DNA of 42,734 bases from Candidatus Bathyarchaeia archaeon. GTDB taxonomy: Archaea; Thermoproteota; Bathyarchaeia; Bathyarchaeales; Bathycorpusculaceae. The stretch's first letter is position 1; each line of letters begins with the position of its first letter. The stretch lies in assembly GCA_049969855.1 (NCBI GenBank), contig JBMFOB010000011.1:1-42734 (forward strand), read 5' to 3'. The notes under the pieces are model-generated. The model worked only from the letters and a program-made list of their open reading frames with translations. It was not told the origin of the DNA and ran no database searches. The position numbers and the translations under genes were made by a program. This document shows, piece after piece, positions 14,589-42,661 of this stretch.

Positions 14589-14635
14589 GTATACAAAATC
14601 AATAATTTAAAAATCGATACAAAATTAGAACGCAT

Positions 14636-14668: not shown

Positions 14669-14675
14669 AAGCTGC

Positions 14676-15236: not shown

Positions 15237-15252
15237 TTGACTTGTCCCTCCG

Positions 15253-16853: not shown

Positions 16854-16888
16854 AAGTTAAGATAAAAGGCAATTGTAAGTGGCATAGA

Positions 16889-20893: not shown

Positions 20894-20925
20894 GACATTC
20901 TCTTAGGAAAGCATCCGCCATTTCT

Positions 20926-21270: not shown

Positions 21271-21350
21271 TTGCGACACTGAAATTTTTATTTCATTTAA
21301 TTTAGATAAAATATTTATGAATTCAAAATCTTTAGCCAACCGAAATTGGG

Positions 21351-22199: not shown

Positions 22200-22310
22200 G
22201 AGATTTCGCCCATTATGGGTTTGCAAAACTGCATTTAAGAATTTCGATTGCAATGTGAAGTTCCAAATAGTTTTTAGCCTTAACAGAGAATTCACTAATG
22301 AAGAATTGCC

Positions 22311-23333: not shown

Positions 23334-24209
23334 TCATGGCTTGTTGGCTGCAATCCCCAAAAATTCTCTGATAAATTTCGATACACTGCAGAAAGTTACG
23401 CCCATACAATCATAGTCTGGATTTGCCTCAACAACATCAAAAGCCCTCATTTTTAACCCTTTCAAGTTATGCATTACCTCTATAAGATTTCGCAACGTGA
23501 TTCCTCCGCCTTCTGGATTGCCAACTCCTGGAGCGAATGCAGGATCTAAAACATCAATGTCAAAGGATACATACACGTTATTGACGTTATTCAAAGCTTC
23601 ATTGATGATGGAAGCTGCTTTCTTCGCGTTTTTGTAAACTTCAGATGTGCTTACAATATTTATGCTGTGGTTTTTGGCGTAAGTTGCCTGTTCAGCCGTG
23701 GATGCTCTTATGCCAATTTGAAATATGTGCTTAGGGTTAACAGCGCCATCTTCAACTATTCTTCTCACAGTGCAAGCGTGGGAATACGGATTTCCTTCAT
23801 AACTCTCATATAAGTCGGGATGAGCATCGAAGTAAATTAAACCCCAAGAGCCGCTTAAAACTTCCTTCAGAGCCTTTAATGTGGCGTATGTTATGCTGTG
23901 GTCCCCTCCGAGAAAAATGTATAATTTGGAATTTGCGTTTTCGCTAACTGCTTCTTTAACTGTTTGAAAAATGTTTAAAAATGAAGTGGGAGTTACGTCG
24001 CCTAAATCGTAAATTTTCCAACACTCTTTAATGTTAACATTGGTCTCCGTATACGGGTTATAAATTTTTGAACTTGTATATTCTCTGATGATTTTTGGAG
24101 CTTTGGCTGAACCTTTTCTGAATGATGAGCTTTTATCCCAACACAAACCAAGGACGCATGCGTTTGCTTCGTTTTTGCTTTTGGTTTCAGCTCCAAAAAA
24201 TAAACTCAC
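23334..24209 (-). CDS. speB: Agmatinase / ureohydrolase family protein
   Basis: GGDHSIT, FDAHPDL, SHA, SFDIDVLDP, PGVGNPEGGG, DVVEANP. Substrate not certain. Confidence 0.8.
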   Translation of the reverse strand: MSLFFGAETKSKNEANACVLGLCWDKSSSFRKGSAKAPKIIREYTSSKIYNPYTETNVNIKECWKIYDLGDVTPTSFLNIFQTVKEAVSENANSKLYIFLGGDHSITYATLKALKEVLSGSWGLIYFDAHPDLYESYEGNPYSHACTVRRIVEDGAVNPKHIFQIGIRASTAEQATYAKNHSINIVSTSEVYKNAKKAASIINEALNNVNNVYVSFDIDVLDPAFAPGVGNPEGGGITLRNLIEVMHNLKGLKMRAFDVVEANPDYDCMGVTFCSVSKFIREFLGIAANKP

Positions 24210-24230
24210 ACTTCTTCCTTCTTAACATGG

Positions 24231-25484
24231 TTATTCCAAAAACTTTTTCATTGCATCCACATTAAGCGGCACATTAACTGGATTTTCAGATATTCTTCTC
24301 CCACTTCTAGGATCTTTAAGTCCATTCCCAGTTATTAGGCATACAACTTCATCTTTCCTATCAATTATGCCGGCTTCCAAAAGTTTTGGAAGAGCTGCAA
24401 CACATGCTGAACCTGAGGGTTCTGCAAATATTCCTTCAAAGCGTGCCAATAAACTCATGGCTTTCAAAATTCCCTTATCTGAAACGTACTCCGCATTTCC
24501 CTTTGATTCTTTTAATGCTTTAATGGCTAAGGGAGCATCATAACTCCATCTTCCAACCAAACCTTCAGCTATTGACTCCTCACAACTTTCCAAAGGTGCG
24601 ACTTTCCCATTTTTAAAACCGTCAACTATGGGTGCGCCACCAACTGGTCCTGTAGCAACAATCTTTGGCAAATTGTCTATGAAGCCTAAATCATTTAACT
24701 CTTTGAAGCCTTTCCACATTCCATATAAATGGGTGCCATTACCAACGTTGTCTATAACCCATTCAGGCGCCTTCCACCCTAACTGTTCGCATATTTCATA
24801 AGCAATTGTTTTGTCGCCCTCCACCCTAAACCTGTTATGACCTGGACAAGACTCGAAAATGTCCAGATCTTTAACTGCCTCCAAGTAAACTTCAAAGATT
24901 TCCTCATAAATTCCATCTACCAGAAAGGTTTTGGCACCATGAACTGAACACTGGGAAACCTTTCCTCTAGAAGCAGTTGCAGGCATAAAAACGAAACAGC
25001 CTAAGCCAGCTCGGGCTGCATAAGCCGCCAGCGAAGCAGCAGCATTTCCAGACGACACGCATGAGACGCTCTTTTTTCCAAATTGCAGTGCTTTATTTAC
25101 GGCTAAAACGCTTTCGCGATCCTTAAAAGAGCCCGTTGGGTTTTGAGCCTCATTTTTTAATAGTAAATTTTTAATTTTGAGCTTTTCAGCTAGTCTTTCA
25201 CTTTTTAGCAGGGTGGTTCCACCCTCACCCAATGTTAATAATTGCTCTTCTTTTTGAAATCCAAGCAGTTCCTTGTATCTTAAGGCGTTAAAAGGTCTTT
25301 TAGAAAACAATTTTTTACTCACTAATTTTCCGATTTCTTCATAGTTATATGTGACTTCCGTTATGCCTTTGAAAACTGTTACTCCCCTTATTTTTTCCGA
25401 ACCACATTTTGGACAAACAAAAAATTTTGGATCAGAAGGGAAGATTTCCCCGCAGTTTACACATTTTAAACCTTTGATAAGCAT
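24231..25484 (-). CDS. thrC: Threonine synthase-like PLP enzyme with N-terminal Zn ribbon
   Basis: CVNC...CPKC, LGEGGT, NPTGSFKDR (PLP Lys), SSGNAAASL, EGDKT, ITGNGLKD. Start moved to MLIKG. Confidence 0.8.
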   Translation of the reverse strand: MLIKGLKCVNCGEIFPSDPKFFVCPKCGSEKIRGVTVFKGITEVTYNYEEIGKLVSKKLFSKRPFNALRYKELLGFQKEEQLLTLGEGGTTLLKSERLAEKLKIKNLLLKNEAQNPTGSFKDRESVLAVNKALQFGKKSVSCVSSGNAAASLAAYAARAGLGCFVFMPATASRGKVSQCSVHGAKTFLVDGIYEEIFEVYLEAVKDLDIFESCPGHNRFRVEGDKTIAYEICEQLGWKAPEWVIDNVGNGTHLYGMWKGFKELNDLGFIDNLPKIVATGPVGGAPIVDGFKNGKVAPLESCEESIAEGLVGRWSYDAPLAIKALKESKGNAEYVSDKGILKAMSLLARFEGIFAEPSGSACVAALPKLLEAGIIDRKDEVVCLITGNGLKDPRSGRRISENPVNVPLNVDAMKKFLE

Positions 25485-25666
25485 GGTTTTACGCCTACTC
25501 TTTTCATGTGGAATATACATACTCCACTTTAGGTTTTAAATGTTTAACGCCAATTCTCAAATTTTCCCATAATGTCTATTGATGAAATTTTTATAGAGAA
25601 AAGATAAACATTATTAGGTACAAATTTAATGATTTCCTTCTTTACATAAGGAATGGTGAAAGCATA

Positions 25667-27091
25667 ATGCCTTCACTTAATTTACTTTCCAAAAAAGACA
25701 TGTACACCGTACATTTGGCAAGCTTGGATGTGCTGCAAGAAGTTGGGGTTATAGTTCCATACGAAGAAGTTCTTCGAAAACTTGACGAGGCAGGCGCTGA
25801 AGTTAACTATAAGAGTCAACATGTGCTAATTCCACAACATCTCGCAGAGGAAGCCATTCGGAAGACACCCCACAGATTCAGCGTTTACAATAGAGATTTG
25901 AAAACAAGGAAAATTTTAGGCGGAGATGAAACGCATTTTGGCACTGTAGGGTTTGCAACTAACTTTTACGATGTAACATCAAGAACCTACCGTAGGGTTA
26001 CAGTGCAAGACTTAGCAAACGCAACGAAGATTGCGGATGCGCTGGAAAATGTTGAGTTTTACATGTGTATGGGTTCTCCAATGGATGTACCACACGAGAT
26101 TGTAGATAGGTATATGTGGGCAACAGCCCTCGAAAACACAAGCAAACCCATAATTAATGAGGCTATGAGAAAGGAAGGCGCCTTAGACGCTATAGAAATG
26201 GCTTCAACCATCATTGGCGGAGTGGAAGAGCTTAGAAAAAAGCCAATAATGCTTCTCCTAATATCAATTACGAGCCCACTCACATTTGATAGGGCTACCC
26301 TCGAAGCGTTTATTGAAGCATCTAAACTTGGTATTCCAGTTTTCGTGAATTCAGGGCCTATGGCTGGAGCGACAAGCCCAGTGACTTTGGCTGGAACTTT
26401 AACCTTAAACATGGCTGAATTCATAAGCGCTCTGGTAATCCGTTACGTGGTTAACAAAGATGCCCCGCTTATAATTGGAAGCTGGGCTAGGGCTATGGAT
26501 GTAAGAGAAGCCTCAGCAGTGCTTGGAGGACCAGAATTCGCTTTGCTCCACGCGTGTGTCGCTCAGATGGCTCATTATTATGGAATTCCAAGCGCTGGTG
26601 GTGGCGTTTTGTCTGATGCTAAAACTTTAGATGCCCAGATGGGCTACGAAAAAGCTTTGACTGGTGTGCTTCCAGCCCTTGCACGTCTTAACTTAATATG
26701 TGGTATGGGTTTGATAGCGTCAGAAAACACCATGAGCCTCGAAGGACTTGTCATAGACAACGAAATTGTCAGCATGATAAAGAAAATTGCGAATGGAATC
26801 GAAATTACAGATGAAACTTTAGCATTGGACATTATAAAAAAAGTTGGGCCGAAAAGCAGTTTCATAAGAGAGCGCCACACTCTTGAACACTTTAGGAAAG
26901 AAATTTGGATACCGAAAATAACTAACAGAACATTCCCTGAAATTTGGGTTAAATCAGGCGCCAAAGATTTATGGGTTAAAGCTAAAGAAGAAGCTGATAA
27001 AATATTGAAGGAACATGAGGTTCTCCCACTATCAAAAGATGCTAAAGATAAAATTATGAAAATCGTCAAAGGAGTAAAAGGAAGGGCTTAA
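25667..27091 (+). CDS. mttB: Trimethylamine methyltransferase (MttB) superfamily protein 1, non-pyrrolysine
   Basis: ITSPL, MAGATSPVTLAG, GGPE, SDAKTLDAQMGYE, DNEI, KVGP...HT; no internal TAG. Confidence 0.9.
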   Translation: MPSLNLLSKKDMYTVHLASLDVLQEVGVIVPYEEVLRKLDEAGAEVNYKSQHVLIPQHLAEEAIRKTPHRFSVYNRDLKTRKILGGDETHFGTVGFATNFYDVTSRTYRRVTVQDLANATKIADALENVEFYMCMGSPMDVPHEIVDRYMWATALENTSKPIINEAMRKEGALDAIEMASTIIGGVEELRKKPIMLLLISITSPLTFDRATLEAFIEASKLGIPVFVNSGPMAGATSPVTLAGTLTLNMAEFISALVIRYVVNKDAPLIIGSWARAMDVREASAVLGGPEFALLHACVAQMAHYYGIPSAGGGVLSDAKTLDAQMGYEKALTGVLPALARLNLICGMGLIASENTMSLEGLVIDNEIVSMIKKIANGIEITDETLALDIIKKVGPKSSFIRERHTLEHFRKEIWIPKITNRTFPEIWVKSGAKDLWVKAKEEADKILKEHEVLPLSKDAKDKIMKIVKGVKGRA

Positions 27092-27092
27092 T

Positions 27093-27749
27093 ATGAGTGC
27101 AGAAAACGTTATAGAAAAGCTGAAACTTGCAGTTTTAGACTACAACATAGAAGAAGCAGCATCCACCGCCAAAGAAGTCATTAAAATGGGAATTGACCCC
27201 CTTAAGGCTATAGAAGAAGGCTTAGCTCAAGGTATAAGAGAAGTTGGAAACAAATTCGCAAACGGAGAAGTATTCCTTCCAGAACTAATAATGGCCGCCG
27301 AAACCATGAAGAAAGCCTTAGAAATTTTGGAGCCTGAACTGAAGAAGAAAAAGAAAGAGCGCAAGACTCTTGGAAAAGTGCTTTTAGGCACAGTGGCAGG
27401 GGACATCCACAGCATAGGAAAAACCATAGTTGCCTCCATGCTAAGTGCAAATGGATTCGAAATCTACGACATTGGAGAGGATGTACCAGCAGAAAAATTT
27501 GTAGAAAAGGTTAAGGAGCTAAAACCAGACATACTCGGACTTTCGGCACTCCTAACTACAACCTTGCCGGAGCAAAAAGTAGTCATTGAAACTTTAAAGA
27601 AAGAGGGCTTAAGAGATAAAGTTAAGGTTATCGTAGGCGGAGCTCCAACAAGCAGGGAATGGGCTAAAGAGATAGGCGCTGACGGTTATGGGGCTGATGC
27701 CACCGAAGCCGTTGAAGTAGTTAAGAAGCTTCTGGAACATTCAAAATGA
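27093..27749 (+). CDS. mttC: Methyltransferase cognate corrinoid protein 1
   Basis: B12 cap FLPELIMAA; GDIHSIGK (DxHxxG); SALLTTT; VGGAP. Confidence 0.9.
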   Translation: MSAENVIEKLKLAVLDYNIEEAASTAKEVIKMGIDPLKAIEEGLAQGIREVGNKFANGEVFLPELIMAAETMKKALEILEPELKKKKKERKTLGKVLLGTVAGDIHSIGKTIVASMLSANGFEIYDIGEDVPAEKFVEKVKELKPDILGLSALLTTTLPEQKVVIETLKKEGLRDKVKVIVGGAPTSREWAKEIGADGYGADATEAVEVVKKLLEHSK

Positions 27750-28936
27750 GTGGAAGGGTCAATATGGCTAGATTGTTAAAACTTTCAAAGCGTTCAGAGA
27801 AAATTCCAAAATCTGGAATCAGAAAAATGTTCGACCTTGCCCAAAAATACACAGACGTAATAAACTTATCCATAGGGGAACCAGATTTTGACACTCCGCC
27901 TCACATAATTGAAGCCGCTATCAAAGCTATGAAGACTGGCTATACCCATTACACTGTAAACGCTGGTTTCTCAGAATTTAGAAAAGCAGTTTCAGAAAAA
28001 CTGAGAAAAGAAAACGGCATAGACGCTGACCCAGAAGAAGAGATCATGGCGACAGCTGGGGGGATGGGAGGCCTATCACTAGCAATGTTGACTATGATAG
28101 ATCCTGGCGACGAGGTTCTGATTCCAAATCCGGGCTTCCCAAATTATGCTGCACAAGTTGTTTTGGCTGGCGGTAAACCAGTTTCTTACCCCCTTAAGGA
28201 GGAGAACAATTTTCGCGTGGATGTCAATGATATAGTTAAAAGAATAACAAAGAAAACAAAAGCCATCTTGATTAATTCGCCATCCAACCCAACAGGATCC
28301 GTGTTGAAAGAGAAGGAACTAAAAAACATAGCAGACATAGCATTAGAAAATAAGTTACTAGTTATATCTGACGAGGCGTATGAGGCTATTCTCTACGATG
28401 GAACAAAGCACATAAGCATAGCATCCCTTCCAGAAATGAAAGAGAAAACAATAAGCGTATTCACATTTTCAAAAACATATGCCATGACAGGGTGGCGCAT
28501 AGGATTTGCAGTAGCCCAAAAAGAGATAATAGAAGGAATGCTTGAGCTTCAAGAACACATATTAGTTCATCCAAGCTCCATTTCACAGATGGCTGCAATC
28601 GCAGCTTTGCGCGGCTCAAAAGATTATACCCAAATGATGCTTAAGGAGTATGCGGAGAGAAGGGAAATTATAACTAAAGAGTTAAACAACATGCCTAGAG
28701 TAACATGCTTGAAGCCGGAAGGCGCCTTCTACGTGTTTCCAAACATAAAGAAAACTGGCATGTCGTCAACCGAAATGGCGATGCACCTTCTTGAGAAAGC
28801 AAAAATAATAACAGTGCCTGGAACAGCCTTTGGGGAATATGGCGAAGGATACATAAGAATTTCATATTCGACATCGAAAGAGAAAATAAGAGAAGCCACG
28901 GATAGAATGCGTGTAGCCCTTGAAAAGTTAGCTTAA
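27746..28936 (+). CDS. PLP-dependent aminotransferase class I/II
   Basis: GEPDF, NSPSNPTG, DEAY, FSKTYAMTGWRIG, PEGAFY. Confidence 0.93.
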   Translation: MSGRVNMARLLKLSKRSEKIPKSGIRKMFDLAQKYTDVINLSIGEPDFDTPPHIIEAAIKAMKTGYTHYTVNAGFSEFRKAVSEKLRKENGIDADPEEEIMATAGGMGGLSLAMLTMIDPGDEVLIPNPGFPNYAAQVVLAGGKPVSYPLKEENNFRVDVNDIVKRITKKTKAILINSPSNPTGSVLKEKELKNIADIALENKLLVISDEAYEAILYDGTKHISIASLPEMKEKTISVFTFSKTYAMTGWRIGFAVAQKEIIEGMLELQEHILVHPSSISQMAAIAALRGSKDYTQMMLKEYAERREIITKELNNMPRVTCLKPEGAFYVFPNIKKTGMSSTEMAMHLLEKAKIITVPGTAFGEYGEGYIRISYSTSKEKIREATDRMRVALEKLA

Positions 28937-29935
28937 TAAGAATCCATATTTTATTGGGTCATCTTTTTCTAAAATGCAGTGTTGCAGACCTATTATGTAA
29001 GCTTTTGCTGAAAGCTTTGGTATTATTGCTTTGTATCCGCCAACTTTGGTTTCTCTGCAGATTTCGCCAACCATTGTTAAGTCTGGATGAACGAGGCTCT
29101 CAACTGTTAGGCGATTTCCAGCTTTAAATTCTCCCTTAGCCCACAATGTAGCTAGTTTGGCACTGACGGAAGTTCCAGCTGGGGAAACGCATATTGTGTC
29201 AGAGTAAACATTTGCGTGTCTACAATTATGCGCAGATTTTATGGGTTTGGCTGAAAACGTTACAAGTTCGATTTTGTTCAACTCTGGATTTTCTGGATGG
29301 CAGACTTTGACTTGCTTGTTTGCAGCATTAAGTATTTTCATGCCAACTCGGATTAACTCTTTCGCATTTTCAGGTTTCACTTGTATGCCAATTTCATCTG
29401 GATTAACAAATACGTAGTAGAGTCCTCCAAAAGCTATGTCTACATTAATTTCGCCGATTTCTGGAACCTTAACTTTTTTTGATTCTTGGTAGAAGGATGG
29501 GACGCCTTCGAAGGATATTTCTTGAACCTCGCCATCTTTAACCTTTGCCTCTACTTTAACCAGTCCTGCAGCAGTGTCGAGATTCACTTCGGTTATGGGT
29601 TCCTTAACTTCAACCATGCCCTGCTCGATTAACACCTTGGTCACACTGAATGTGCTGTCTCCGCAAGAGTTGAAGTAGCCACCAGTATACGGAAAGACTA
29701 CTCCATAATCTGCCTTCGGATTGGCTGGTTCAGTAATTATAGCCCCCAATATGCCTGAAAAACCTCTAGGCTGCATCATTAGGGCTTTTCTCCAACTATC
29801 AAAGTGTTCTTGGCAATACTTCGTTTTCTCCCACATGGTTTTGCCCGGAATCCGAGGAAAGCCGCTTACAACAACTTTAGTTGTTTCTCCCGAAGAGTGG
29901 GTTTCAACAACCGTAATTGTTCTTTCAACTTTCAT
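28928..29935 (-). CDS. Proline racemase family protein with atypical active site
   Basis: HSSGE, PRG, SCGD (for MCGH), DIAFGG, HPENP, CVSPAGT (for DRSPCGT), DDPIKYGF. Confidence 0.85.
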   Translation of the reverse strand: MKVERTITVVETHSSGETTKVVVSGFPRIPGKTMWEKTKYCQEHFDSWRKALMMQPRGFSGILGAIITEPANPKADYGVVFPYTGGYFNSCGDSTFSVTKVLIEQGMVEVKEPITEVNLDTAAGLVKVEAKVKDGEVQEISFEGVPSFYQESKKVKVPEIGEINVDIAFGGLYYVFVNPDEIGIQVKPENAKELIRVGMKILNAANKQVKVCHPENPELNKIELVTFSAKPIKSAHNCRHANVYSDTICVSPAGTSVSAKLATLWAKGEFKAGNRLTVESLVHPDLTMVGEICRETKVGGYKAIIPKLSAKAYIIGLQHCILEKDDPIKYGFLLS

Positions 29936-29968
29936 AACCTCACCGAAGTAGCCTAAAACTTATTTCTT

Positions 29969-29984
29969 ATATAAAATTTTATAT
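29969..29984. promoter_or_regulatory. Perfect 16-bp AT palindrome / back-to-back TATA boxes of a divergent promoter
   Basis: ATATAAAATTTTATAT, centred in the 83-nt gap between the racemase-like gene and the AOR gene. Confidence 0.6.
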
Positions 29985-30018
29985 CCAGAAACCTTCGAAA
30001 AGGATGTGTGTGATTAAA

Positions 30019-31857: not shown

Positions 31858-31934
31858 ATATTCCTCAAAAATTAACAAATCAACCATTTTATTTTTTAAC
31901 TAATTTTTATGTAAAAATGATGAGTCGGACAAGG

Positions 31935-32840: not shown

Positions 32841-32842
32841 TC

Positions 32843-34735: not shown

Positions 34736-34775
34736 TTTTATTGCCTATCCAGAAACAATTACGGCTATGAGACTT

Positions 34776-36212
34776 TTAGTGTTTCTTCTTAATGTCCTCC
34801 ATGACCCGTTCAAGATCTTCTTGAACATCTTTTGGTAGGGGTTCAGGCTCATGTTCTTTTAATTTTCTCTCAACGATTTCGTGTGCTCGTTTAACAATAT
34901 CCTTTTTTCCAGAATCTTTCCAAACATTCCATTCCTTTCTGTCAATAACTTCAGATGGTATAAATTGTTCTTTTCTAATCCATTCCAAAGTGTGCTTCTC
35001 CGCTAAATATACTCCGCCAGGTCCCACCTTTCTTATTAAGTCAAAAGCAAGCGTTTCATCTTCAACCCTTACACCCTTCGCAAGTCTTAATGCAATGCCG
35101 CAAATTTCATTGTCGACAACAAGTTTTTCTAAGCTTTGACAGTTTTCAAAATCTAACATTCCAGGTCCCGATATCACGTTTATTCCTGCAAGCGCTCCTA
35201 AAACTATGCCAATCCCAGATTCAAAACCACACTGGGCATCAATAATTTTTGCATCGCTAAGCCCAATATACATGTGGGTTGGCAATCCATAACTTTTTGC
35301 AATTTGAGTATACGCGCAACCAAGCATCATAGCTTCTATCGCCCCAAGACAAGCCGTGGCATATCTCTGGTCTAAGACTGTTGGCGAACCACCATAAATC
35401 ACCGGCGCACCAGGGTTTGTCAACTGAACCATTACTAAGCCGCTTAAAAATTCAGCGTTATGTTGAACGAGGGATCCAGCTATTGTTGCAGGACCCGTTG
35501 CGCCTAATTGAGGTACTGGAATAATCTCAGCGGGCAGGCGGAACTTGGCGCAGTCAATTAGATTTTGAGCGTCAAGTTCACTCCATTTCAATGGAGCAGA
35601 GGGGCAAACGTCAAATATTGCCATGGGTTTTCTGGCTAACTCTTTTTCTCCGCCAACGACGACTTCAAGCATCCGCTTCATATCGTAAAGCCCATCAACG
35701 CTAAAAGCGCCTGTGATTATCGTTTTTGAAGAATTTTTCAGGACTATGTAAAGGCGGTATCGGTCAACAATTGTTTGTGGAACGTCAGAGACAACTAAAG
35801 CTGTGCTTTGAGCATGGATATAATCAAGAGCGTCAGTCAATCTGACCAGTTCTGCTAAATCTTTTGAAACTGGTTTTCTAATCTCGTTTTTTTCGTAATC
35901 CAAAATGTATAGCGCTGATGAGCCTGGATTGAAAGTAACTTTATCTCCTTCCAGAGTTCTGTCATGCTTTTTGTTTCGACCGTAAAGCTTGATTGTTGAT
36001 GGAGCCTTAGACAAAGCTTCTTTAACCAAATATTGTGGGATGTAGGCGAGTTTCTTGTCAAAGTCAACTTCGGCTCCACCGTCAGCAAGCAATTTCAACG
36101 CAGCTTCACTGTATATTTTTACGCCAACCTCTTCCAAAATTCTCATGGAAGCAAGATGGATGGATTCAATTTGCTCCTCAGACAATGGCTTAAACTGTGA
36201 AGATTTGGACAT
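34776..36212 (-). CDS. mttB: MttB superfamily methyltransferase 2, non-pyrrolysine
   Basis: PSAPL, GATGPATIAG, SDAKIIDAQCGFE, GPGMLDFE, DNEI, KVGPGG. Confidence 0.9.
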   Translation of the reverse strand: MSKSSQFKPLSEEQIESIHLASMRILEEVGVKIYSEAALKLLADGGAEVDFDKKLAYIPQYLVKEALSKAPSTIKLYGRNKKHDRTLEGDKVTFNPGSSALYILDYEKNEIRKPVSKDLAELVRLTDALDYIHAQSTALVVSDVPQTIVDRYRLYIVLKNSSKTIITGAFSVDGLYDMKRMLEVVVGGEKELARKPMAIFDVCPSAPLKWSELDAQNLIDCAKFRLPAEIIPVPQLGATGPATIAGSLVQHNAEFLSGLVMVQLTNPGAPVIYGGSPTVLDQRYATACLGAIEAMMLGCAYTQIAKSYGLPTHMYIGLSDAKIIDAQCGFESGIGIVLGALAGINVISGPGMLDFENCQSLEKLVVDNEICGIALRLAKGVRVEDETLAFDLIRKVGPGGVYLAEKHTLEWIRKEQFIPSEVIDRKEWNVWKDSGKKDIVKRAHEIVERKLKEHEPEPLPKDVQEDLERVMEDIKKKH

Positions 36213-36262
36213 AAAGTTCCTCCTTTTGAACTTCTTAACAAGCGAAGTTTTTAATAAGCTTT

Positions 36263-37723
36263 TTAGTGCTCAACTAAATCTTTTTTCGCTATTTCAATTA
36301 TGTTTTTAATCTCTTTTTGAACTTCAACTTCTAAGGGTTGGACTTGGTGTCTTTGAAGGATTATTTTGACTTTTTCCCTCGCCATCTTCACTATGTCTTT
36401 TGCGCCGTCCCTAAGCCATGTTTCAAAGGATCGCCTATCGGTTAATTGTGGAATGAAATGTTCCTTTCGTATATGCTCAAGAGTGTGCCTCTCACCTAGG
36501 AAATTACCGCCAGGACCAACCTTACGAATAACGTTAAGAGCTAATGTATCATTGCTAACTTCTATTCCTTGAGCAATTCGAAAAATTATTCTCACAATCT
36601 CGGCGTCAATTAAAATCTCTTCAAACGCAAGGGTTGTACAGTCATCCAGCAACCCTATCCCAGCAATCATGCCGCAGCCAGATAAAACTGGCGGAAAACC
36701 ACTTGTAAACTTCTCATAACAGGCTTGTGCTCCAGGAGCCTTTGCCGTCGAAACAAAACCCCCTACAATAGAAGGCATACCATAATACCTTGCCAGTTCA
36801 CCAGCAGCAGCACCAGTCAGTCCATGTTCAGGACCGCCTCCGGCGCGTTTTAAAGTTCTCATATCAAAAGCCGCAATGCCTGCACCATAAACAACCGATG
36901 CGCCAGGGCATGCAAGTTGAGTGATTACAAGACAACCCAGCACTTCCGCGTTATTCACAACCATGGAACCCGCCAGCGTCGCAGGACCCGTTGCTCCAAG
37001 TTGGGGCATTCCAAAAAACATCACTGGAACGCCAGCTTTTGAAAATTCTAAGGCGGCTTCCATACTGTTTCCATCCATCTGGAGAGGCGCACTTGTACAA
37101 TGCAGTGAAGAAATTATTGGTTTTTTCCTTAGTTTCTTTTCGCCCCCGACAACCACTGAAGCCATTTCTATCTGATATCTGGCTTCTTTAGACGACATGG
37201 TGGTTTCGAAGGTTACATGCTTCTCCGTGTTAGACAAAGATGCCTCAAGATCGTGGAGGTGCCGAACATGTGCTGGATAATCCTGTGCGCTCACCAAGGG
37301 CCAATATATGTCCACAACGTCAATGGCGTCTGAGATTATGGCTGATTTGGCTATATCCTCTTTTGTTGAGGCTCTTCGTTCTCCAGTTTCCATGTCAATT
37401 GTTTGGGTTCCGTTTCCATCAGTTGTTATATAGACGTGCCTTTGATCCAGGTTCACGTCATATTTTGGGTTTCGAGCGCACAGGGTTATGCTCTTTCGAT
37501 TCTTTCTTAAGGCTTCTTCAACAAGGTAGGAAGGCATTAACGCTACTTGGTTTTTATAGTCAACTTCGCAGTCTCCTTCTTCTAAAATTGTGAGACATTT
37601 TTTGCTGTTTATTTTGAAGCCTGTTGTTGCCAAAACTTCAAGGGTGGTTTGGTGAATTGCCTCTAAATCTTCTTTTGATAACACGGAGAAGGTTATTCTT
37701 TGGTTTTCCCTAGAGAAGCCCAT
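36263..37723 (-). CDS. mttB: MttB superfamily methyltransferase 3, non-pyrrolysine
   Basis: ARNPKYD, TSAPL, GATGPATLAG, GGPE, AQACYEK, GIGLLD, KVGPGGNFLGERHT. Confidence 0.9.
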   Translation of the reverse strand: MGFSRENQRITFSVLSKEDLEAIHQTTLEVLATTGFKINSKKCLTILEEGDCEVDYKNQVALMPSYLVEEALRKNRKSITLCARNPKYDVNLDQRHVYITTDGNGTQTIDMETGERRASTKEDIAKSAIISDAIDVVDIYWPLVSAQDYPAHVRHLHDLEASLSNTEKHVTFETTMSSKEARYQIEMASVVVGGEKKLRKKPIISSLHCTSAPLQMDGNSMEAALEFSKAGVPVMFFGMPQLGATGPATLAGSMVVNNAEVLGCLVITQLACPGASVVYGAGIAAFDMRTLKRAGGGPEHGLTGAAAGELARYYGMPSIVGGFVSTAKAPGAQACYEKFTSGFPPVLSGCGMIAGIGLLDDCTTLAFEEILIDAEIVRIIFRIAQGIEVSNDTLALNVIRKVGPGGNFLGERHTLEHIRKEHFIPQLTDRRSFETWLRDGAKDIVKMAREKVKIILQRHQVQPLEVEVQKEIKNIIEIAKKDLVEH

Positions 37724-37766
37724 TTTAAGAGTTTACCCCAGTCCACTGCGTATAACAATTTTTGAC

Positions 37767-38417
37767 TTAGGAAGCTTCAACTAGTTTCTTTGCAACTTCA
37801 ACAGCTTCTATTGCGTCTCCGCCATGTCCATCAGCGCCTATTTCTTCAGCCCATTTCTTGGATGTTGGCGCTCCGCCGATTATCACTTTAACTTTTTCTC
37901 TTAATCCTTCACGTTTAAGCGCATCTATGACATCTGCCATTTTAGCCATTGTTGTTGTCATTAGGGCAGACATGCCGACTATTTCTGGTTTAACCTCCTT
38001 AATTTTCTCGACGAATTTTTCGGTTGGTACATCAACGCCTATGTCGATCACTTCAAAACCTGCCACCATGAGTAGAGTGCCCACAATGTTTTTTCCAATG
38101 TCATGGATATCTCCTTCCACAGTGCCTATAAGAACTTTGCCCAAAGTTTTCTTCTCTCTAGTGCTTTTCAGTATTGCTGGTTCTAACACCTTCAAAGCTT
38201 GCTTCATGGCTTCTGCTGCTATTACAAGCTCTGTCAAAAAAGCTTCCCCTGCACCGAAACGTTCCCCAACAATTCTTACTCCCTTAGCTAAACCGCCTTC
38301 AATAGCTTCAACAGGGTCCACGCCTTTTTGAAGGGCTTCTTCAGCAGCCTTCACAGCTGCTTCTGGATCATAATTTAGGACGGCGTTCGTTAGTTTGTTT
38401 AAAACTTCTTCTTTCAT
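37767..38417 (-). CDS. mttC: Methyltransferase cognate corrinoid protein 2
   Basis: FLTELVIAA, GTVEGDIHDIGKN, SALMTTT, IGGAP. Start moved to MKEEV, with GGGTGA RBS upstream. Confidence 0.9.
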   Translation of the reverse strand: MKEEVLNKLTNAVLNYDPEAAVKAAEEALQKGVDPVEAIEGGLAKGVRIVGERFGAGEAFLTELVIAAEAMKQALKVLEPAILKSTREKKTLGKVLIGTVEGDIHDIGKNIVGTLLMVAGFEVIDIGVDVPTEKFVEKIKEVKPEIVGMSALMTTTMAKMADVIDALKREGLREKVKVIIGGAPTSKKWAEEIGADGHGGDAIEAVEVAKKLVEAS

Positions 38418-38541
38418 TAATTCACCCGCATTTTCCAAACTACTTGGATTATATATAAATTTATTGAGAACATTTAGGTATCAATTTTCATAAAAAAATA
38501 AATATGTTAAGGCATAGTAATAGTTCTGAAGTGCAACAACA

Positions 38542-39501
38542 ATGGCGGATAAAGTTAGGTTATTTCATGCTGTAGATGTGCATGGAAGCGAAATTGTCTG
38601 GCGAAAGTGGCTTTCAATTCCTAAAGTGCATAAGGCAGACATTTTATTGTTGTGTGGTGATTTGACAGGGAAACTTATAATTCCCATCATTGAAGAAGCT
38701 CCTGGCAAATATAAAACTATGGTTTATGGGCGGTGGATTAACGCCAGCGGCGAAGATGAGCTTAAAAAATTGGTAGATAAAATTACCTTCAGCGGGTTTT
38801 ACACGCATGTTTGCAGCCAAGATGAGTATGATGCACTTATGAAGAACCCCAAAAAAGTTGACGAATTGTTCCGTGATTACATGAAGGAGAGGCTTCAAAG
38901 ATGGCTCGGCATGATTGATGAGAAATTACCCAAAAATATTACTGTTGTAATGATGCCGGGAAACGACGACTCCTTTGAAATTGATGAATTAATAAAGGCT
39001 CATGAGGACCGCGTTATTTATCCCCTAGGAAAAGTTGTGGACCTTTGCTTTGATTATAAAATGTTAAGTTTTGAGTGGGTTAATCCAACGCCTTGGGACA
39101 CTCCAAGGGAAGCCGCAGAGGATGAGTTGTGGAAAAAATTAGAAAAGATAAAGGATATGTTTTCTGGCGACTGGAAAAAGGTTATTCTAAACTTTCATTG
39201 TCCCCCATATGGCACGAAACTGGATTTGGCTCCAAAACTGGATAAGAATTTAAAACCAGTTGTCTTCTTGGGAAGAATTATTTATGATAACGTTGGCAGC
39301 AAATCAATACGCCGATTCATTGAGGAAAATCAGCCCATTTTAAGCCTGCACGGTCATATCCATGAGTCTTATGCTTCAGATTATGTAGGCAAAACCTTAG
39401 CAATCAACCCTGGATCCGAATACAGCGAAGGAGTGTTGAGGGGATTTATCATCGACCTTACCAAAAATGGCGTTGAGAAATGGTGGAAAATAGAGGGATA
39501 A
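38542..39501 (+). CDS. Icc-related metallophosphoesterase (calcineurin-like)
   Basis: DVHGS, GDLTGK, PGNDD, HCPP, LHGHIHES, NPGSEY. Confidence 0.88.
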   Translation: MADKVRLFHAVDVHGSEIVWRKWLSIPKVHKADILLLCGDLTGKLIIPIIEEAPGKYKTMVYGRWINASGEDELKKLVDKITFSGFYTHVCSQDEYDALMKNPKKVDELFRDYMKERLQRWLGMIDEKLPKNITVVMMPGNDDSFEIDELIKAHEDRVIYPLGKVVDLCFDYKMLSFEWVNPTPWDTPREAAEDELWKKLEKIKDMFSGDWKKVILNFHCPPYGTKLDLAPKLDKNLKPVVFLGRIIYDNVGSKSIRRFIEENQPILSLHGHIHESYASDYVGKTLAINPGSEYSEGVLRGFIIDLTKNGVEKWWKIEG

Positions 39502-39503
39502 AA

Positions 39504-40295
39504 ATGGAAGAAAAGGAAAAGAAACAAGTGTCATCAGAAGAAATCGTAAAAATCGCCTTAGACCTCATAGAAGAATCCAAAAAAGAAGGCATCACGTTAA
39601 GGCTGATAGGTGGTCCAGCAGTCAGAATACATTCTTCCCCAATGGCGGTTGAACTTCACAAAAAATTGAAAAGAATTGAAGGACAAGAATTTCCAGATAT
39701 CGATTTCGTAGCTCCAGATAAAGAGAGGGCGAAAATAAGAAAATTCTTTGAGACGAGGGGTTGGAAGTTCGATTCCTACATCTTTTTCTTTACAAGCGGT
39801 GTGGGAACAAGAAATCGCCAAGTATACAGAGGAAAAGTGGACTTGGACATATTTTACGACGAGTTAGATTTATGCCATAAAATAGATTTTCGAAACCGAT
39901 TTAACATAGACTTTCCAACAGCATCATTAGTAGACTTGCTGCTAACCAAATTGGAAATTGTTGAATTTACAGAGAAAGACGCCAAAGACGTCATAGTCCT
40001 AATAAGAGACCACAAAATCGGAGACACTGATGCGCCTGAAACAATTAATGCAAAATATATGGCTAAACTGTTTGCAAACGACTGGGGATTCTGGTACACA
40101 GCCACAAACAACCTAAAAAAGGTTAGAGCCGCTTGTCCAATGTACAAGCAACTTTCTGAAGAGGACGTTGCCGATGTGACTTCTAAAATTGATCAGATAT
40201 TAAAGTACATAGACGAGGAGCCTAAAACTAAGGATTGGATGAAGAGGGCAGAGGTTGGAACAAAGAAGAAATGGTACAAGGAAGTTAGGCTGTAA
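39504..40295 (+). CDS. Hypothetical protein with nucleotidyltransferase (Pol beta superfamily)-like motifs
   Basis: LRLIGGPAV..H, PDIDF, DLDIF, KDAKD. Start at ATG 39504, 2 nt after the upstream stop. Confidence 0.7.
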   Translation: MEEKEKKQVSSEEIVKIALDLIEESKKEGITLRLIGGPAVRIHSSPMAVELHKKLKRIEGQEFPDIDFVAPDKERAKIRKFFETRGWKFDSYIFFFTSGVGTRNRQVYRGKVDLDIFYDELDLCHKIDFRNRFNIDFPTASLVDLLLTKLEIVEFTEKDAKDVIVLIRDHKIGDTDAPETINAKYMAKLFANDWGFWYTATNNLKKVRAACPMYKQLSEEDVADVTSKIDQILKYIDEEPKTKDWMKRAEVGTKKKWYKEVRL

Positions 40296-40364
40296 ATTCT
40301 AACTTAAGTCTTATAATCTTATGCCCCTATATTATTTGCATTAAGAGTTAAGTTAAAGTTTATA

Positions 40365-41060
40365 GTGGGTAAGATTTTGAAGAGAACTAGCGACGACGTG
40401 AAAAAGGCTGAAAAGGCATCGAACGATTTGGCTTACTTAATTAGCTATTATGATGGGTTGAGAAGTGCAGTGATATCTGACCCAAAAGATGTCTTAAAGA
40501 AGACCAAAACTGCAGGGGTTGACCAAGCTTATTGGAAATATTTCAGCAAAGAAACTCAGAAGGTTTTAAGGAAAATGGGACGGTCAAGTAAAGTTAGGAC
40601 TATGATAAGGGTTAACAAGGTTCTAAAATTTGTCAGCATGGCTTACTTTATGATTGTTGTTGCCTTAGCTGTTTCATGGCAAAGAAACGTAATTCTTCCT
40701 TCCAATTTGGAGTGGTTGTGGTGGCTTCTATCATGGCCAAGCGTAATTTTGCTTTTTATCATAGCAGACGTATCATTGCTCATGTTAAGCTTAACAAAAT
40801 ATGAAATGAAAAAACTTGCCGATGAAGGCGGCGTCAAAGATGAGGAAACCGCAAAGGAAAGATTAAAGGAAGCCGTCCAATATCACATTGACAAGTTAAG
40901 AGCAAACATTGAAAAGTATAAACTGAAACCTGAAAATTACAAAATTAAGTTGCATAAAACAGATTATAAAGGGATAAAAATAGTCAAAAAACCTGGCATC
41001 ATGCGTGGATATTACATTGCAATAGTAGATGTGAAGTTTAAAGAAAAAATGGGTGTTTAA
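40365..41060 (+). CDS. Hypothetical basic membrane protein (two central TM helices)
   Basis: Two hydrophobic segments flanked by Lys-rich soluble regions. Confidence 0.7.
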   Translation: MGKILKRTSDDVKKAEKASNDLAYLISYYDGLRSAVISDPKDVLKKTKTAGVDQAYWKYFSKETQKVLRKMGRSSKVRTMIRVNKVLKFVSMAYFMIVVALAVSWQRNVILPSNLEWLWWLLSWPSVILLFIIADVSLLMLSLTKYEMKKLADEGGVKDEETAKERLKEAVQYHIDKLRANIEKYKLKPENYKIKLHKTDYKGIKIVKKPGIMRGYYIAIVDVKFKEKMGV

Positions 41061-41065
41061 AGGAT

Positions 41066-42661
41066 TTATGCTGGTGGTATTTCGCCGTAAATGTCCTGTA
41101 AAGCGATGCCCATTCTTCTGTTACGTTCTGCATAGGCAAACCATATGAGTGAACCCACGAAAACCCAGAAAGCCAAGTACAGCATGCCCCAGAACTCTAG
41201 CCATGACGCACTTATCGCCATTCCCCACACCCAGAATAATACTGCACAAGCTCCAACTATGGATATTAATGGTATACCAGCAAGTGTAGCCTTAAAACCT
41301 CTCTCCCAAATGTCCGGGCGCTTATATGGCACTGCGACTCCTGCTAAGGCAATGAAGAGTTGGCTTATTATGAATATGAAAGTTGCGTCTACAGTAGCCA
41401 CAAATGTTCTTGGAGGAAGACTGAGAGGGACAAACGTGTAGGCAATTAATGCTGTCAATATAACTGACCAATGCGGCGAATGGAAGCGTTCATTCACACG
41501 GTTAAATGCGTCTGGGAAGAACTTGTCAAAGGACCATGCAAAGGGTTGTCTTGGACCTACAAGCAATGTTGCGCCTGCACAGTTGGAAATCCAAAGGGCT
41601 GGAATGAAAGCGAATATAGCTTGAAGCCAAACCATTCCATGAGCTAATGGCACAGTAAATAACGGTAAACTTGGGTCCATAACCCTCATCGCCGTTACTT
41701 GATCGCCATAACCTTCGCCATAGACATAACAGTATTGACTGACAAAGTCACCGTAAGCAGTGTATAACCCAATTGCAGTTAAGACATACCAAATCATTAT
41801 GAATAGCGTAGCAATAAAGACGCCAAGTATGAAGCCTCTCTTCGGCGATTTCATTTCTCCACCAAAATAACACGCTGCTGTAGATCCCCAGTAAGCCCAG
41901 AACGTATCTGCGAAATTACCTATAGTTGCCCCTCCAACACCGCCAGCCGAAGCGGTATGTTCTTCTACAAATGTCGCCCATCCATTTGTTGTTGCCACCT
42001 GCTGCACTTGCTCCCATGACCCATTGCCATACGTTAAATTCCAAGCTTCCTTCACGTAACTTGGATTAGCAACTCCATAGAACGTTGCAAATATTCCCAA
42101 AAAGCTTCCCACTATGCCTATAGCAACTAACCCTGCAACATACCACCTGAAAACCCGTATGCCCAACAAAGACAACAATGTATAAAGCGTAATTATGACA
42201 CAAGCAATTAAAGCCAACCCCATATTATCCAACGCAAAAGCAGCCCAAGCCTCATTTTCCGTAGCCACCCCCAACAGATTGATCACCTTCTCCCAGAAAC
42301 CAGCGCCAATAACAGCTAACAGTCCAGTGGCAAAGTTGTTGGCAACAAAATAGAGCCAGTCTCCAAGAAAACCAATATGCGGATCTAACACTCGCGACAC
42401 GTAAATGTAGCTTCCTCCAGACCTCGGCATCATTATTCCCATTTCTGTAATCACATAAGCCACGAATATGGCTGGCAAAGCTCCAATGATATAAGCAACT
42501 GGGATTAATGATCCAGGATGCCAATAAGAAGCTTGCACCACCCAGTAGTTTATTCCGCTGCCAATGGTGTAGCTAAGCGATATAGAAAATGCAGACCACC
42601 AGCCTAACTCCCTGACCAGTCCAGTTGCCTTTCTTGGAAAAGCAAACTTAACTTCGGCCAA
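41066..42661 (-). CDS. APC family amino acid/polyamine permease
   Basis: RKATGLVRELG, MPRSGGSYIYVSR, GGEMKSP, FAWSFD, SPH, C-terminal EIPP; many TM segments. Confidence 0.9.
   Translation of the reverse strand: MAEVKFAFPRKATGLVRELGWWSAFSISLSYTIGSGINYWVVQASYWHPGSLIPVAYIIGALPAIFVAYVITEMGIMMPRSGGSYIYVSRVLDPHIGFLGDWLYFVANNFATGLLAVIGAGFWEKVINLLGVATENEAWAAFALDNMGLALIACVIITLYTLLSLLGIRVFRWYVAGLVAIGIVGSFLGIFATFYGVANPSYVKEAWNLTYGNGSWEQVQQVATTNGWATFVEEHTASAGGVGGATIGNFADTFWAYWGSTAACYFGGEMKSPKRGFILGVFIATLFIMIWYVLTAIGLYTAYGDFVSQYCYVYGEGYGDQVTAMRVMDPSLPLFTVPLAHGMVWLQAIFAFIPALWISNCAGATLLVGPRQPFAWSFDKFFPDAFNRVNERFHSPHWSVILTALIAYTFVPLSLPPRTFVATVDATFIFIISQLFIALAGVAVPYKRPDIWERGFKATLAGIPLISIVGACAVLFWVWGMAISASWLEFWGMLYLAFWVFVGSLIWFAYAERNRRMGIALQDIYGEIPPA

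Follow-up and report, generated by a model that had tools for sequence, protein, structure and literature searches.

Three pyrrolysine-free MttB-type methyltransferases in one locus of a hot-spring Bathyarchaeon: a possible methyl supply for acetyl-CoA synthase

Introduction

A 42,734-nt stretch of DNA (hereafter, the window) carries three genes of MttB-type methyltransferases (MT1; MttB_a, MttB_b, and MttB_c), two genes of corrinoid proteins (CoPs; CoP_a and CoP_b), and genes of an MtrH-type methyltransferase (MT2) and a RACo-type reductive activase. The window is the complete contig C11 of a 1.28-Mb, 49-contig Bathyarchaeia assembly that is 93% complete (source genome, G000). Among the described systems, the bacterial quaternary-amine:tetrahydrofolate (THF) systems share with the window an MttB-superfamily MT1, the type of cobalamin protein, an MtrH/MtgA-like MT2, an ATP-dependent activase, and a three-step relay. 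They comprise MtgB/MtgC/MtgA of Desulfitobacterium hafniense and MtpB, MtcB, MtyB, and MthB with MtqC/MthC, MtqA/MthA, and RamQ of Eubacterium limosum (PMC13080624, PMC12155760). According to PMC13080624, glycine betaine is bound by Y97, R312, H348, and F356 of MtgB. R312, which pairs with the acidic group (carboxylate or phosphate) of the substrate, is shared by every pyrrolysine-free member characterised so far (MtgB, MtcB, MtpB, MtyB, and MthB), each of which takes a single methyl group off an acidic quaternary amine (PMC13080624). The MttB/MttC system of Methanosarcina (MttB structure, 7xcl) depends on pyrrolysine.

In archaea, clusters of this kind have been predicted from genomes. The presence of mttB in seven orders of Bathyarchaeia was read as non-methanogenic methylotrophy (PMC10321748), and mtrH–mttB–corrinoid–activase clusters without pyl genes were reported in Culexarchaeia (PMC9723716). 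These mcr-less clusters (see also PMC8407382 for Bathyarchaeia) have the same components as the window and no pyl or mcr genes, and non-methanogenic use of methylated amines was inferred from them; the supplementary figures and tables of those papers may already list related clusters. For termite-gut Bathyarchaeia that lack Mer, have a complete Cdh complex, and carry CoP–MtrH pairs (Ca. Termiticorpusculum), Loh et al. proposed methylotrophic acetogenesis from "unidentified methylated compound(s)", with ferredoxin reduced by amino-acid oxidation (PMC7886697).

Here we compared the window with the rest of G000, with related genomes, and with homologous loci (C-numbers denote contigs of G000, L-numbers the loci compared, and other G-numbers related genomes). 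With a probability of about 0.55, we read the cluster as supplying methyl-tetrahydromethanopterin (methyl-H4MPT) to acetyl-CoA synthase (ACS) in a hot-spring Bathyarchaeon that lacks mcr and Mer, with probably three different compounds as substrates. Unlike the predicted clusters mentioned above, the locus combines three deep MttB paralogues and two CoPs, lacks the Arg312 site, and contains a block of genes encoding a ThrC-like enzyme, a ureohydrolase, and an aminotransferase (AT).

Results

A complete methyl-transfer system in single copy

Gene identities were taken from the open reading frame (ORF) listing and from Pfam and NCBIfam profile scans of the window, and all the genes named in a preliminary description of this DNA were recovered where it had placed them (Table 1). 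The ORFs of MttB_a, MttB_b, and MttB_c are uninterrupted, with no in-frame stop codon, and all three match the MTTB family (PF06253; cut-off, 25 bits) over its full length (profile positions ca. 28–494 of 500). CoP_a and CoP_b scored 237 and 231.4 bits, respectively, against TIGR02370 (cut-off, 215.3), and both have the cobalamin-binding motif D-x-H-x-x-G (DIHSIG at residue 104 of CoP_a and DIHDIG at residue 110 of CoP_b). MtrH passed the cut-offs of NF002142 (308.5 bits; cut-off, 287) and TIGR01114 (278.2 bits; cut-off, 271.4), and its score with the THF-specific MtgA model NF047990 (269.5 bits) was below the cut-off of 550. No other gene of mtrA–G was found among the window ORFs, so mtrH stands alone. 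RACo scored 559.1 bits with the AcsV model (cut-off, 800) and 146.5 bits with the RamA/RamQ-type model TIGR04270 (cut-off, 500). With MT1s, CoPs, MT2, and activase side by side and family thresholds passed, the earlier claim of a complete methyl-transfer system held.

Judged by spacing, CoP_b–MttB_c–MttB_b–RACo–MtrH is a predicted operon with CoP_b first and gaps of 2–50 nt. All methyl-transfer components lie within 25667–38438, and the three MttB genes fall inside 13 kb. These three genes were the only MTTB matches of the whole genome, and tblastn found no second copy of the CoPs, RACo, or MtrH in the 1.28-Mb assembly. Therefore, the clustering of the methyl-transfer genes is not due to chance. 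The absence of mcr, first noted for the window, extends to the whole 93%-complete assembly, in which no match for mcrA (MCR_alpha) was found. In base composition, however, the locus is not an island: the GC content of the region (0.39–0.43) does not deviate from that of the rest of the window (0.40–0.42).

A shared regulatory site was also sought. TTAGGTA-like elements occur in the divergent promoter regions 25521–25666 and 38439–38541; the second was not conserved in L002 and L003, no 9-mer was shared among the four promoter regions, and the idea was dropped.

Contigs from four other hot-spring or sediment metagenome runs, belonging to four studies, span 25667–35600, most pieces being 90–99% alike. 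The word depth in one of these runs was near 280, so close relatives with the cluster can be abundant. No RNA run was listed for 25667–35600.

Active sites of the three MttBs

The position of pyrrolysine in MttB of Methanosarcina barkeri (residue 334 of 7xcl, written X) is occupied by Leu in MttB_a and MttB_b and by Val in MttB_c. The scores of MttB_a, MttB_b, and MttB_c with the pyrrolysine MttB model TIGR02369 were 475.5, 467.7, and 512.3 bits, respectively, all below the cut-off of 525. In none of the five genomes of the genus did PylS_Cterm exceed its cut-off (best score, 33.6 bits; cut-off, 178), while the same search gave 279 bits in a Bathyarchaeia genome used as the positive control (G064). 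The three enzymes thus differ from Methanosarcina MttB in having no TAG codon, Val or Leu in place of pyrrolysine, and no PylS found in the genus. In G064 (contig G064:C1), an MttB gene whose pyrrolysine column holds an in-frame TAG (locus L060, 347100–349100) is accompanied by pylS (350087–350806). Therefore, pyrrolysine-type MttB exists within Bathyarchaeia.

To compare the substrate-binding site, MtgB residues were mapped through alignments to 9yce, in which the chain index is the number used in the paper minus 2. The best solved match of all three enzymes was 7xcl (258, 260, and 284 bits for MttB_a, MttB_b, and MttB_c), against 249, 247, and 224 bits for MtgB. The Arg312 column holds Ala in MttB_a, His in MttB_b, and Ile in MttB_c; the Tyr97 column, Phe, Ser, and Asn; and the Phe356 column, Glu, Glu, and Cys, respectively. 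The His348 column shows Gly, Ser, and a gap in the pairwise alignments with the PDB entry and Gly in all three in the 81-row MAFFT alignment. Arg was present at the Arg312 column in eight of the 81 rows, none of them a window enzyme. Unlike in the bacterial systems, the binding site is thus not kept in the window MttBs, except for Phe at the Tyr97 column of MttB_a. The substrates are probably not classical acidic (carboxylate) betaines.

In the pockets, Arg is replaced by a neutral residue or His and, in two of the enzymes, an aromatic residue by Glu; N-methyl compounds that are non-acidic or net-cationic might conceivably be accommodated there. Trimethyllysine, methylarginines, and methylated derivatives of polyamines or agmatine could be examples of such substrates, and the clade of MttB_c could act on simple methylamines without pyrrolysine. 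This idea is part of a bolder reading, in which the three MttBs represent new substrate classes of this non-acidic or cationic kind, the ThrC-like enzyme is their dedicated pyridoxal phosphate (PLP)-dependent partner, and the cluster is the obligatory methyl supply of ACS in a Mer-less archaeon; we regard the whole as a long shot.

Phylogeny and distribution of the MttBs

MttB homologues from the fetched loci gave 81 rows, of which 18 close duplicates were dropped and 63 kept for a quick IQ-TREE search (LG+C20, midpoint rooting), with the Shimodaira–Hasegawa-like approximate likelihood-ratio test (SH-aLRT) as the only support measure. MttB_c belongs to a 17-row clade (SH-aLRT 97). All three rows of the tree that have TAG at the pyrrolysine column are also in this clade, and pylS lies ca. 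1.3 kb from one of them. MttB_b belongs to a 13-row clade of Bathyarchaeia (SH-aLRT 100), in which the Arg312 column is His in 12 rows and Gln in one. MttB_a falls in a 5-row clade (SH-aLRT 99). A separate 8-row clade (SH-aLRT 99) has Arg at this column in seven of its rows and includes no window enzyme. With 37–39% identity to each other, the three MttBs are old paralogues of deep, uncharacterised branches. The betaine analogy drawn in the preliminary description does not transfer to them: the characterised betaine enzymes keep Arg312, and the window MttBs have Ala, His, or Ile and fall in other clades.

MTTB-family genes were patchily distributed, being found in 96 of the 301 sampled Bathyarchaeia genomes (43 of 108 genera) and in only two of the 48 other genomes of the family to which the window belongs.

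The preliminary description had also proposed a pathway in which the three MttBs strip a single imported compound, an N-methylated amino acid or betaine, of its methyl groups step by step, after which the ureohydrolase, the ThrC-like enzyme, AT, the proline-racemase (ProR) homologue, and the aldehyde:ferredoxin oxidoreductase (AOR) break down the backbone. The part that assigns three successive methyl groups of one substrate to the three enzymes found no support in the comparison: the paralogues come from three deep clades, and elsewhere they occur singly or in other combinations in separate genomes. The loss of Arg312, which every characterised one-methyl-removing member has (PMC13080624), from all three also speaks against this pathway.

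One-carbon metabolism of the genus and the probable fate of the methyl groups

We searched the five genus genomes for the enzymes that would make or consume methyl-H4MPT. Mer did not exceed its cut-off in any of the five (weak luciferase-like matches were seen in one), and MTHFR (MetF) and FolD were likewise found in none. SHMT was found in all five, MtrH in four, and CdhC in four, missing in G000 only. The other corrinoid methyltransferase families, MtaB, MtmB, and URO-D, were each found in none of the five. In G000, Ftr is present in two copies and Mch is partial, and no match was obtained for Mer, MTHFR, or CdhC. The cdh locus of a genus member consists of two MetE-like genes, two CooC genes, and CdhA, CdhB, CdhC, CdhD, and CdhE. 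Contig C42 of G000 breaks off in the cooC region, and at the start of contig C24 there are the last 78 CdhD residues and then CdhE (91% identity). Therefore, the missing cdhA–C of G000 fall in an assembly gap. ATP-grasp_5, the kind of domain found in ADP-forming acyl-CoA synthetases, had six matches, five of them over the cut-off; one such gene is cut by the start of the window (1–177, minus strand).

In a genus member (G301:C3, locus L035), the two MetE-like genes (2674–4813), of the cobalamin-independent methionine synthase family, lie directly upstream of cooC–cdhABCDE.

Since the genus has CODH/ACS (carbon monoxide dehydrogenase/ACS) and neither Mer nor MetF, it would have no methylene/methyl interconversion, and the cluster is the likely source of methyl-H4MPT. 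On the simplest reading, the lineage neither makes methyl-H4MPT from CO2 nor oxidises it. The pterin acceptor is likely H4MPT, given that MtrH passes its cut-offs, that Ftr and Mch are present, and that FolD and MetF were not found; this bears out the pterin carrier of the preliminary description, which overlooked CODH/ACS of a genus without Mer as the likely methyl sink. In the mechanism that we propose, each of the three MttBs would move an N-methyl group from a methylated amine to Co(I) of one of the two CoPs, and the soluble MtrH-type enzyme would pass the methyl group to H4MPT. RACo would re-reduce corrinoid that has been accidentally oxidised. Methyl-H4MPT would then enter CODH/ACS, and acetyl-CoA would yield acetate and ATP through ADP-forming acyl-CoA synthetases. 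Electrons for the reduction of CO2 to CO would come from elsewhere, plausibly from ferredoxin reduced in amino-acid or aldehyde oxidation. That methyl groups flow in this direction, with H4MPT as the acceptor and ACS as the sink, is predicted here from gene content.

The genus has the features on which the published model of methyl-dependent acetogenesis in Mer-less Bathyarchaeia is built, namely Cdh present, Mer absent, and CoP–MtrH present. As in Ca. Termiticorpusculum, the methyl groups would thus run to ACS (PMC7886697). Unlike in those gut archaea, for which the substrate-specific MT1 was unidentified, three MttB-type MT1 genes stand at the locus of this hot-spring archaeon. The methyl-to-ACS design is already in print, and the value of the locus lies in its three deep MttB branches and their ThrC-like partner.

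Several points weigh against this reading. Mtd was found in only two of the five genus genomes and not in G000. The genomes are 87–93% complete, and Mer may have been missed or replaced by an unrecognised enzyme. MtrH–CoP pairs could also act anabolically, moving the methyl group away from H4MPT (PMC7886697). As for the substrates, the Arg312 argument draws on five characterised enzymes, with conservation taken from the text of PMC13080624, and the references in the tree are internal rows only, chosen for an in-frame TAG or for their residue at the Arg column.

Accessory genes

The coordinates of the methyl-transfer genes and their neighbours are given in Table 1.

Table 1 Genes of the methyl-transfer locus and adjoining genes, with positions in the window.
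Feature	Position	Strand	Family evidence
Arginase-family ureohydrolase (agmatinase-like)	23334..24209	-	Pfam Arginase 246 bits
ThrC-family PLP enzyme (ThrC-like), N-terminal CxxC...CxxC extension	24231..25520	-	PALP 241.7 bits
MttB_a, pyrrolysine-free MttB-superfamily MT1	25667..27091	+	MTTB 309.7 bits
CoP_a, corrinoid protein cognate to MttB_a	27093..27749	+	B12-binding 99.9 bits, B12-binding_2 73.5 bits
Class I/II aminotransferase (AT)	27746..28936	+	Aminotran_1_2 278.7 bits
Proline-racemase-family protein (ProR homologue)	28928..29935	-	Pro_racemase 320.6 bits
Aldehyde:ferredoxin oxidoreductase family (AOR)	30004..31857	+	AFOR_C 389.4 bits, AFOR_N 246 bits
Stand-alone MtrH-type methyl-corrinoid:pterin methyltransferase (MT2)	31935..32840	-	MtrH 298.3 bits
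RACo-type corrinoid-protein reductive activase	32843..34735	-	Fer2, RACo_linker, Raco_middle, RACo_C_ter domains
MttB_b, pyrrolysine-free MttB-superfamily MT1	34776..36212	-	MTTB 333.8 bits
MttB_c, pyrrolysine-free MttB-superfamily MT1	36263..37723	-	MTTB 319.7 bits
CoP_b, corrinoid protein	37767..38438	-	B12-binding 104.5 bits, B12-binding_2 77.2 bits
Calcineurin-like metallophosphoesterase, divergent from CoP_b	38542..39501	+	Metallophos 32.2 bits
hyp271, 271-aa hypothetical protein, possibly Pol-beta-type nucleotidyltransferase	39480..40295	+	no Pfam/NCBIfam match
hyp231, 231-aa hypothetical protein, hydrophobic middle part	40365..41060	+	no family match
APC-superfamily permease, candidate importer	41066..42661	-	AA_permease_2 89.2 bits

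By spacing, the ThrC-like gene followed by the ureohydrolase gene (21-nt gap) forms a predicted unit divergent from MttB_a–CoP_a–AT. The start of AT overlaps the stop of CoP_a by 4 nt (ATGA), confirming an overlap pointed out in the preliminary description, and this arrangement points to translational coupling of the two genes. By the same measure, the ProR homologue, AOR, and permease genes are each predicted to be separate transcription units, and phosphoesterase–hyp271–hyp231 to be a unit divergent from CoP_b.

The ureohydrolase scored 192.2 bits with the agmatinase model TIGR01230 (cut-off, 174.3). Its alignment to 6vsu contains the stretches GGDHS, DAHPD, and DIDVLDP, which we take to be the ligand motifs of the binuclear Mn site. 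Plant arginase, guanidinopropionase, and guanidinobutyrase are among the solved structures that it matches best, and one paralogue (33% identity) is on contig C3. The best solved matches of AT were the aspartate and aromatic aminotransferases of Pyrococcus horikoshii (1gd9 and 1dju; 395 and 393 bits), and at least three further copies are present in the genome. AOR has three further copies, a 64% paralogue on C8 and two at 31–32%. In the ProR homologue, the first catalytic Cys is retained (SCGD), and the second site is Ala (SPAGT), where 6r76 has Thr and 7pb3 has Cys; all NCBIfam equivalogs remained below their cut-offs. At the second site, Cys is the residue of racemases and Thr that of hydroxyproline dehydratases. 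Judged by these residues, the earlier label of proline-racemase homologue needs a qualification: the protein is not a two-cysteine, two-base racemase and may be an unusual single-base family member.

Of the remaining genes, hyp271 gave only a weak nucleotidyltransferase lead in the protein atlas and hyp231 none. The sequence of hyp271 contains LIGGPAV...PDIDFV, a stretch that in our view is similar to the G-[GS]...D-x-D signature known from Pol-beta-type nucleotidyltransferases. The APC permease had weak NCBIfam matches only, and its promoter side runs into the contig end. A second phosphoesterase/hyp271/APC set, with identities of 39%, 24%, and 30%, is located on C2 (ca. 1757–5572) without methyltransferase genes; this module may be independent of the methyl-transfer genes.

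Conservation of the accessory genes

Close relatives of the locus (76–98% protein identity) were L001–L006, L008/L009, L023–L027, L076–L078, L083, L155–L161, and L198. Where the contig allows, their gene order is APC–hyp231–hyp271–phosphoesterase–CoP_b–MttB_c–MttB_b–[RACo]–MtrH–[AOR–ProR]–AT–CoP_a–MttB_a–ThrC-like–ureohydrolase. The phosphoesterase gene adjoins CoP_b in L001–L006 and L008, hyp231 is kept at 61–95% identity in the same loci, and the APC permease stands at the same position in L001–L006. RACo, AOR, and the ProR homologue were absent from the cluster in L004, L005, L006, and L009 and are thus variable even in close relatives.

In the MttB loci fetched from farther away, the accessory genes were not found. 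L007, on a short contig, keeps the order CoP_b–MttB_c–MttB_b (74%, 71%, and 68% identity) and has no other cluster gene. L034 (G211:C17), from a genome of the same family, has an MttB_a-like gene (50%) and none of the accessory genes of the window. L010, L013, L014, and the bacterial loci L011, L012, and L015–L022 carry MttB and, in some cases, CoP, with no accessory gene in the fetched flanks. The scan of AT covered 46 loci: methyltransferase genes (CoP_a/MttB_a) stood beside AT in all seven loci with at least 80% identity and in none of the 39 others. The two nearest of the other AT loci (59–60%) have an AOR-like gene ca. 3 kb away and no methyltransferase gene. In the scan of the ureohydrolase (79 of 80 loci), methyltransferase neighbours were seen in four close-clade loci (plus L024) and in none of the 75 others. 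Its homologues with 43–52% identity occur in Thermococci, Desulfurococcales, Culexarchaeia, Korarchaeia, and Asgard archaea, with no methyltransferase gene nearby. Synteny across Bathyarchaeia, which the preliminary description had named as a test of its pathway, therefore came out largely against it.

L034 encodes, besides the MttB_a-like protein, a URO-D-type methyltransferase, two CoPs, RACo, a DAO-family FAD oxidoreductase, an AAA/VWA protein, a DUF2284 protein, and a Liv-type ABC importer. In L024 and L027, two contigs labelled as one metagenome-assembled genome, two copies of the MttB_a/ThrC-like/ureohydrolase block are present. In five of the six loci labelled as Thermococci (L079, L081, L085, L087, and L090), an agmatinase-family gene ca. 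50% identical to that of the window is directly followed by a ThrC-family gene. This pair was considered as the same module and rejected, as that ThrC is nearer to the C15 paralogue (218 bits) than to the cluster copy (154 bits).

These patterns bear on two explanations of the accessory genes. The stepwise degradation of one substrate introduced above draws on the coupling of AT to CoP_a, on the ureohydrolase–ThrC-like/MttB_a–CoP_a–AT block kept in the 76–98% relatives where the contig allows, and on the accessory genes being extra paralogues and not the only copies of the genome; the Liv-type amino-acid importer and the DAO-family oxidoreductase next to the MttB_a-like gene of L034 also fit it. 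It is weakened by the loss of AOR and the ProR homologue from the cluster in four close relatives, by the missing second catalytic Cys of the latter, and by AT and the ureohydrolase never standing beside methyltransferase genes outside the shallow clade. Together with the evidence from the MttBs themselves, this makes the pathway unlikely.

Alternatively, the accessory genes may be mere neighbours, that is, genes of ordinary amino-acid and peptide metabolism beside a methyl-transfer unit in one shallow lineage. The confinement of synteny to relatives with 76–98% identity agrees with this, and so do the methyltransferase-free phosphoesterase/hyp271/APC module on C2, the nearest outside AT homologues located near AOR-like genes, the ureohydrolases widespread in thermophilic archaea without methyltransferase neighbours, and the peptidases M20, M48, and M55 in the left half of the window. 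The ATGA overlap of CoP_a and AT, which points to co-translation, and the distribution of the ThrC-like gene described below speak against it, and we consider chance neighbourhood of all these genes possible and rather doubtful. The coupling to amino-acid catabolism claimed earlier is thus weakened, with the tight link of AT and the recurrent ThrC-like partner left in its favour. Any role of AT, the ThrC-like enzyme, or the ureohydrolase in the methyl-H4MPT supply that we favour is putative.

The ThrC-like enzyme is a recurrent partner

The ThrC-like enzyme scored 211.5 bits with TIGR00260 (cut-off, 167.1) and 291.3 bits with PRK08197, below the cut-off of 303. Its best solved match was Aquifex ThrC (2zsj; 237 bits), and the lysine of SFKDR is present. 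Where Aquifex ThrC has the loop STGNTSAS, the ThrC-like enzyme has SSGNAAAS. This loop was examined as an argument against threonine synthesis and set aside as weak, because none of the four ThrC-family paralogues of the genome has an STGNTS loop; the three further paralogues are 35–39% identical. Within the orthologue group, the active-site stretches are strongly conserved.

The search for the ThrC-like enzyme yielded 12 loci, 11 of them at orthologue level (63–94% identity). In all six close-clade loci, the gene adjoins an MttB gene; in L026 this is an extra MttB_c-like gene (64%) and not MttB_a. Among the five loci outside the clade, L030 has the ThrC-like gene directly downstream of an MttB_b-like gene (69%), plus a further MttB fragment, and in L032 the ThrC-like gene stands between a URO-D-family methyltransferase gene and a CoP gene, with a second URO-D gene nearby. 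L032 also has a hyp271-like gene (40%) near the ThrC-like gene. The contigs of L028 (labelled Culexarchaeum; 6.7 kb), L029 (5.7 kb), and L031 (8.1 kb) showed no methyltransferase gene. The five outside-clade genomes have 2, 0, 12, 4, and 14 MttB matches; four of the five therefore carry MttB, compared with 96 of 301 in the class sample, although these genomes are few and related, so that the co-occurrence is only an indication. In the class sample itself, orthologue-level matches (64%) were found in two MttB-bearing genomes only, the others being paralogues at 40–48%. The ThrC-like gene is the only accessory gene that is linked to corrinoid methyltransferase genes in distant lineages. This link, which recurs in two of the five outside-clade loci, and the frequency of MttB in those genomes speak against a chance neighbourhood.

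Since the partner methyltransferase varies (MttB_a, MttB_b-like, MttB_c-like, or URO-D), the ThrC-like enzyme may serve the acceptor or product side and not one particular substrate. A search on MttB, threonine synthase, and corrinoid found no published description of a ThrC-like partner of MttB clusters. The nearest likeness, by description only, is MetM, the homocysteine synthase of Streptomyces (PMC13759103, PMC12172450), a ThrC-family PLP enzyme with a non-threonine function tied to methyl metabolism. Unlike MetM, the ThrC-like enzyme of the window has no gene for a MetO-like carrier nearby.

This likeness raises the alternative that the cluster is an anabolic relay to methionine. The ThrC-like enzyme would be a MetM-like homocysteine synthase acting on O-phosphohomoserine, the corrinoid-bound methyl groups would be passed to homocysteine, and the ureohydrolase would act in polyamine synthesis that depends on S-adenosylmethionine. 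ThrC homologues can indeed be homocysteine synthases, as MetM illustrates (PMC13759103, PMC12172450), and the position of the ThrC-like gene beside four kinds of methyltransferase (MttB_a, MttB_b-like, MttB_c-like, and URO-D with CoP) fits an acceptor-side role. Two MetE-like genes precede the cdh operon of the genus member mentioned above, and CoP–MtrH pairs adjoin metE in another archaeon (PMC7886697). However, the window contains neither a MetE-like nor a sulfur-carrier gene, tblastn did not recover the MetE-like genes of G301 in G000, and three MT1s with two CoPs would be a large investment for methionine alone. We therefore judge a methionine relay improbable and continue to prefer the supply of methyl-H4MPT to ACS.

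Other genes of the window

Outside the locus, the window contains a lipoyl synthase pair, LipS1 (19895–20893) and LipS2 (22311–23312), split by genes for a winged-helix regulator and a protein of the M55 D-aminopeptidase family (19895–23312). A type IV pilus-like set on the minus strand (9008–15825) includes a T2SSE ATPase, a T2SSF membrane protein, and several proteins without a family; two proteins of the set match the archaeal pilin N-terminal domain weakly, below the cut-off. Genes related to flavin cofactors are dispersed in the left half of the window: the segments 5986–7746 and 15990–17374 encode a CTP-dependent riboflavin kinase with a helix-turn-helix domain, two cytidylyltransferase-like (FAD synthetase-like) proteins, and a riboflavin-type S component of an energy-coupling factor transporter. 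Peptidases of the families M20, M48, and M55 are encoded in the left half of the window.

Discussion

The locus resembles the bacterial quaternary-amine systems in its parts and departs from them in three respects: the MttBs lack the betaine site, the acceptor is probably H4MPT and not THF, and the activase is of the RACo type and not of the RamA/RamQ type. MttB_c shares a supported clade with the rows that have TAG at the pyrrolysine column, which brings it closest to the Methanosarcina type, from which all three enzymes are separated by their pyrrolysine-free sequences and by scores below the TIGR02369 cut-off.

Bathyarchaeia belong to the most abundant uncultured archaea, and the view that they use methylated compounds is based on the annotation "trimethylamine methyltransferase". 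The locus shows that both this annotation and the betaine analogy can be wrong, because its MttBs have neither pyrrolysine nor the carboxylate-binding arginine. It offers a compact and complete set for expression, consisting of three MT1s that represent three MttB branches, two CoPs, an activase, and an MT2, and the ThrC-like enzyme is a recurrent partner that could point to the substrate or the acceptor. In a genus that has CODH/ACS and lacks Mer and MetF, the cluster may be the sole route to methyl-H4MPT.

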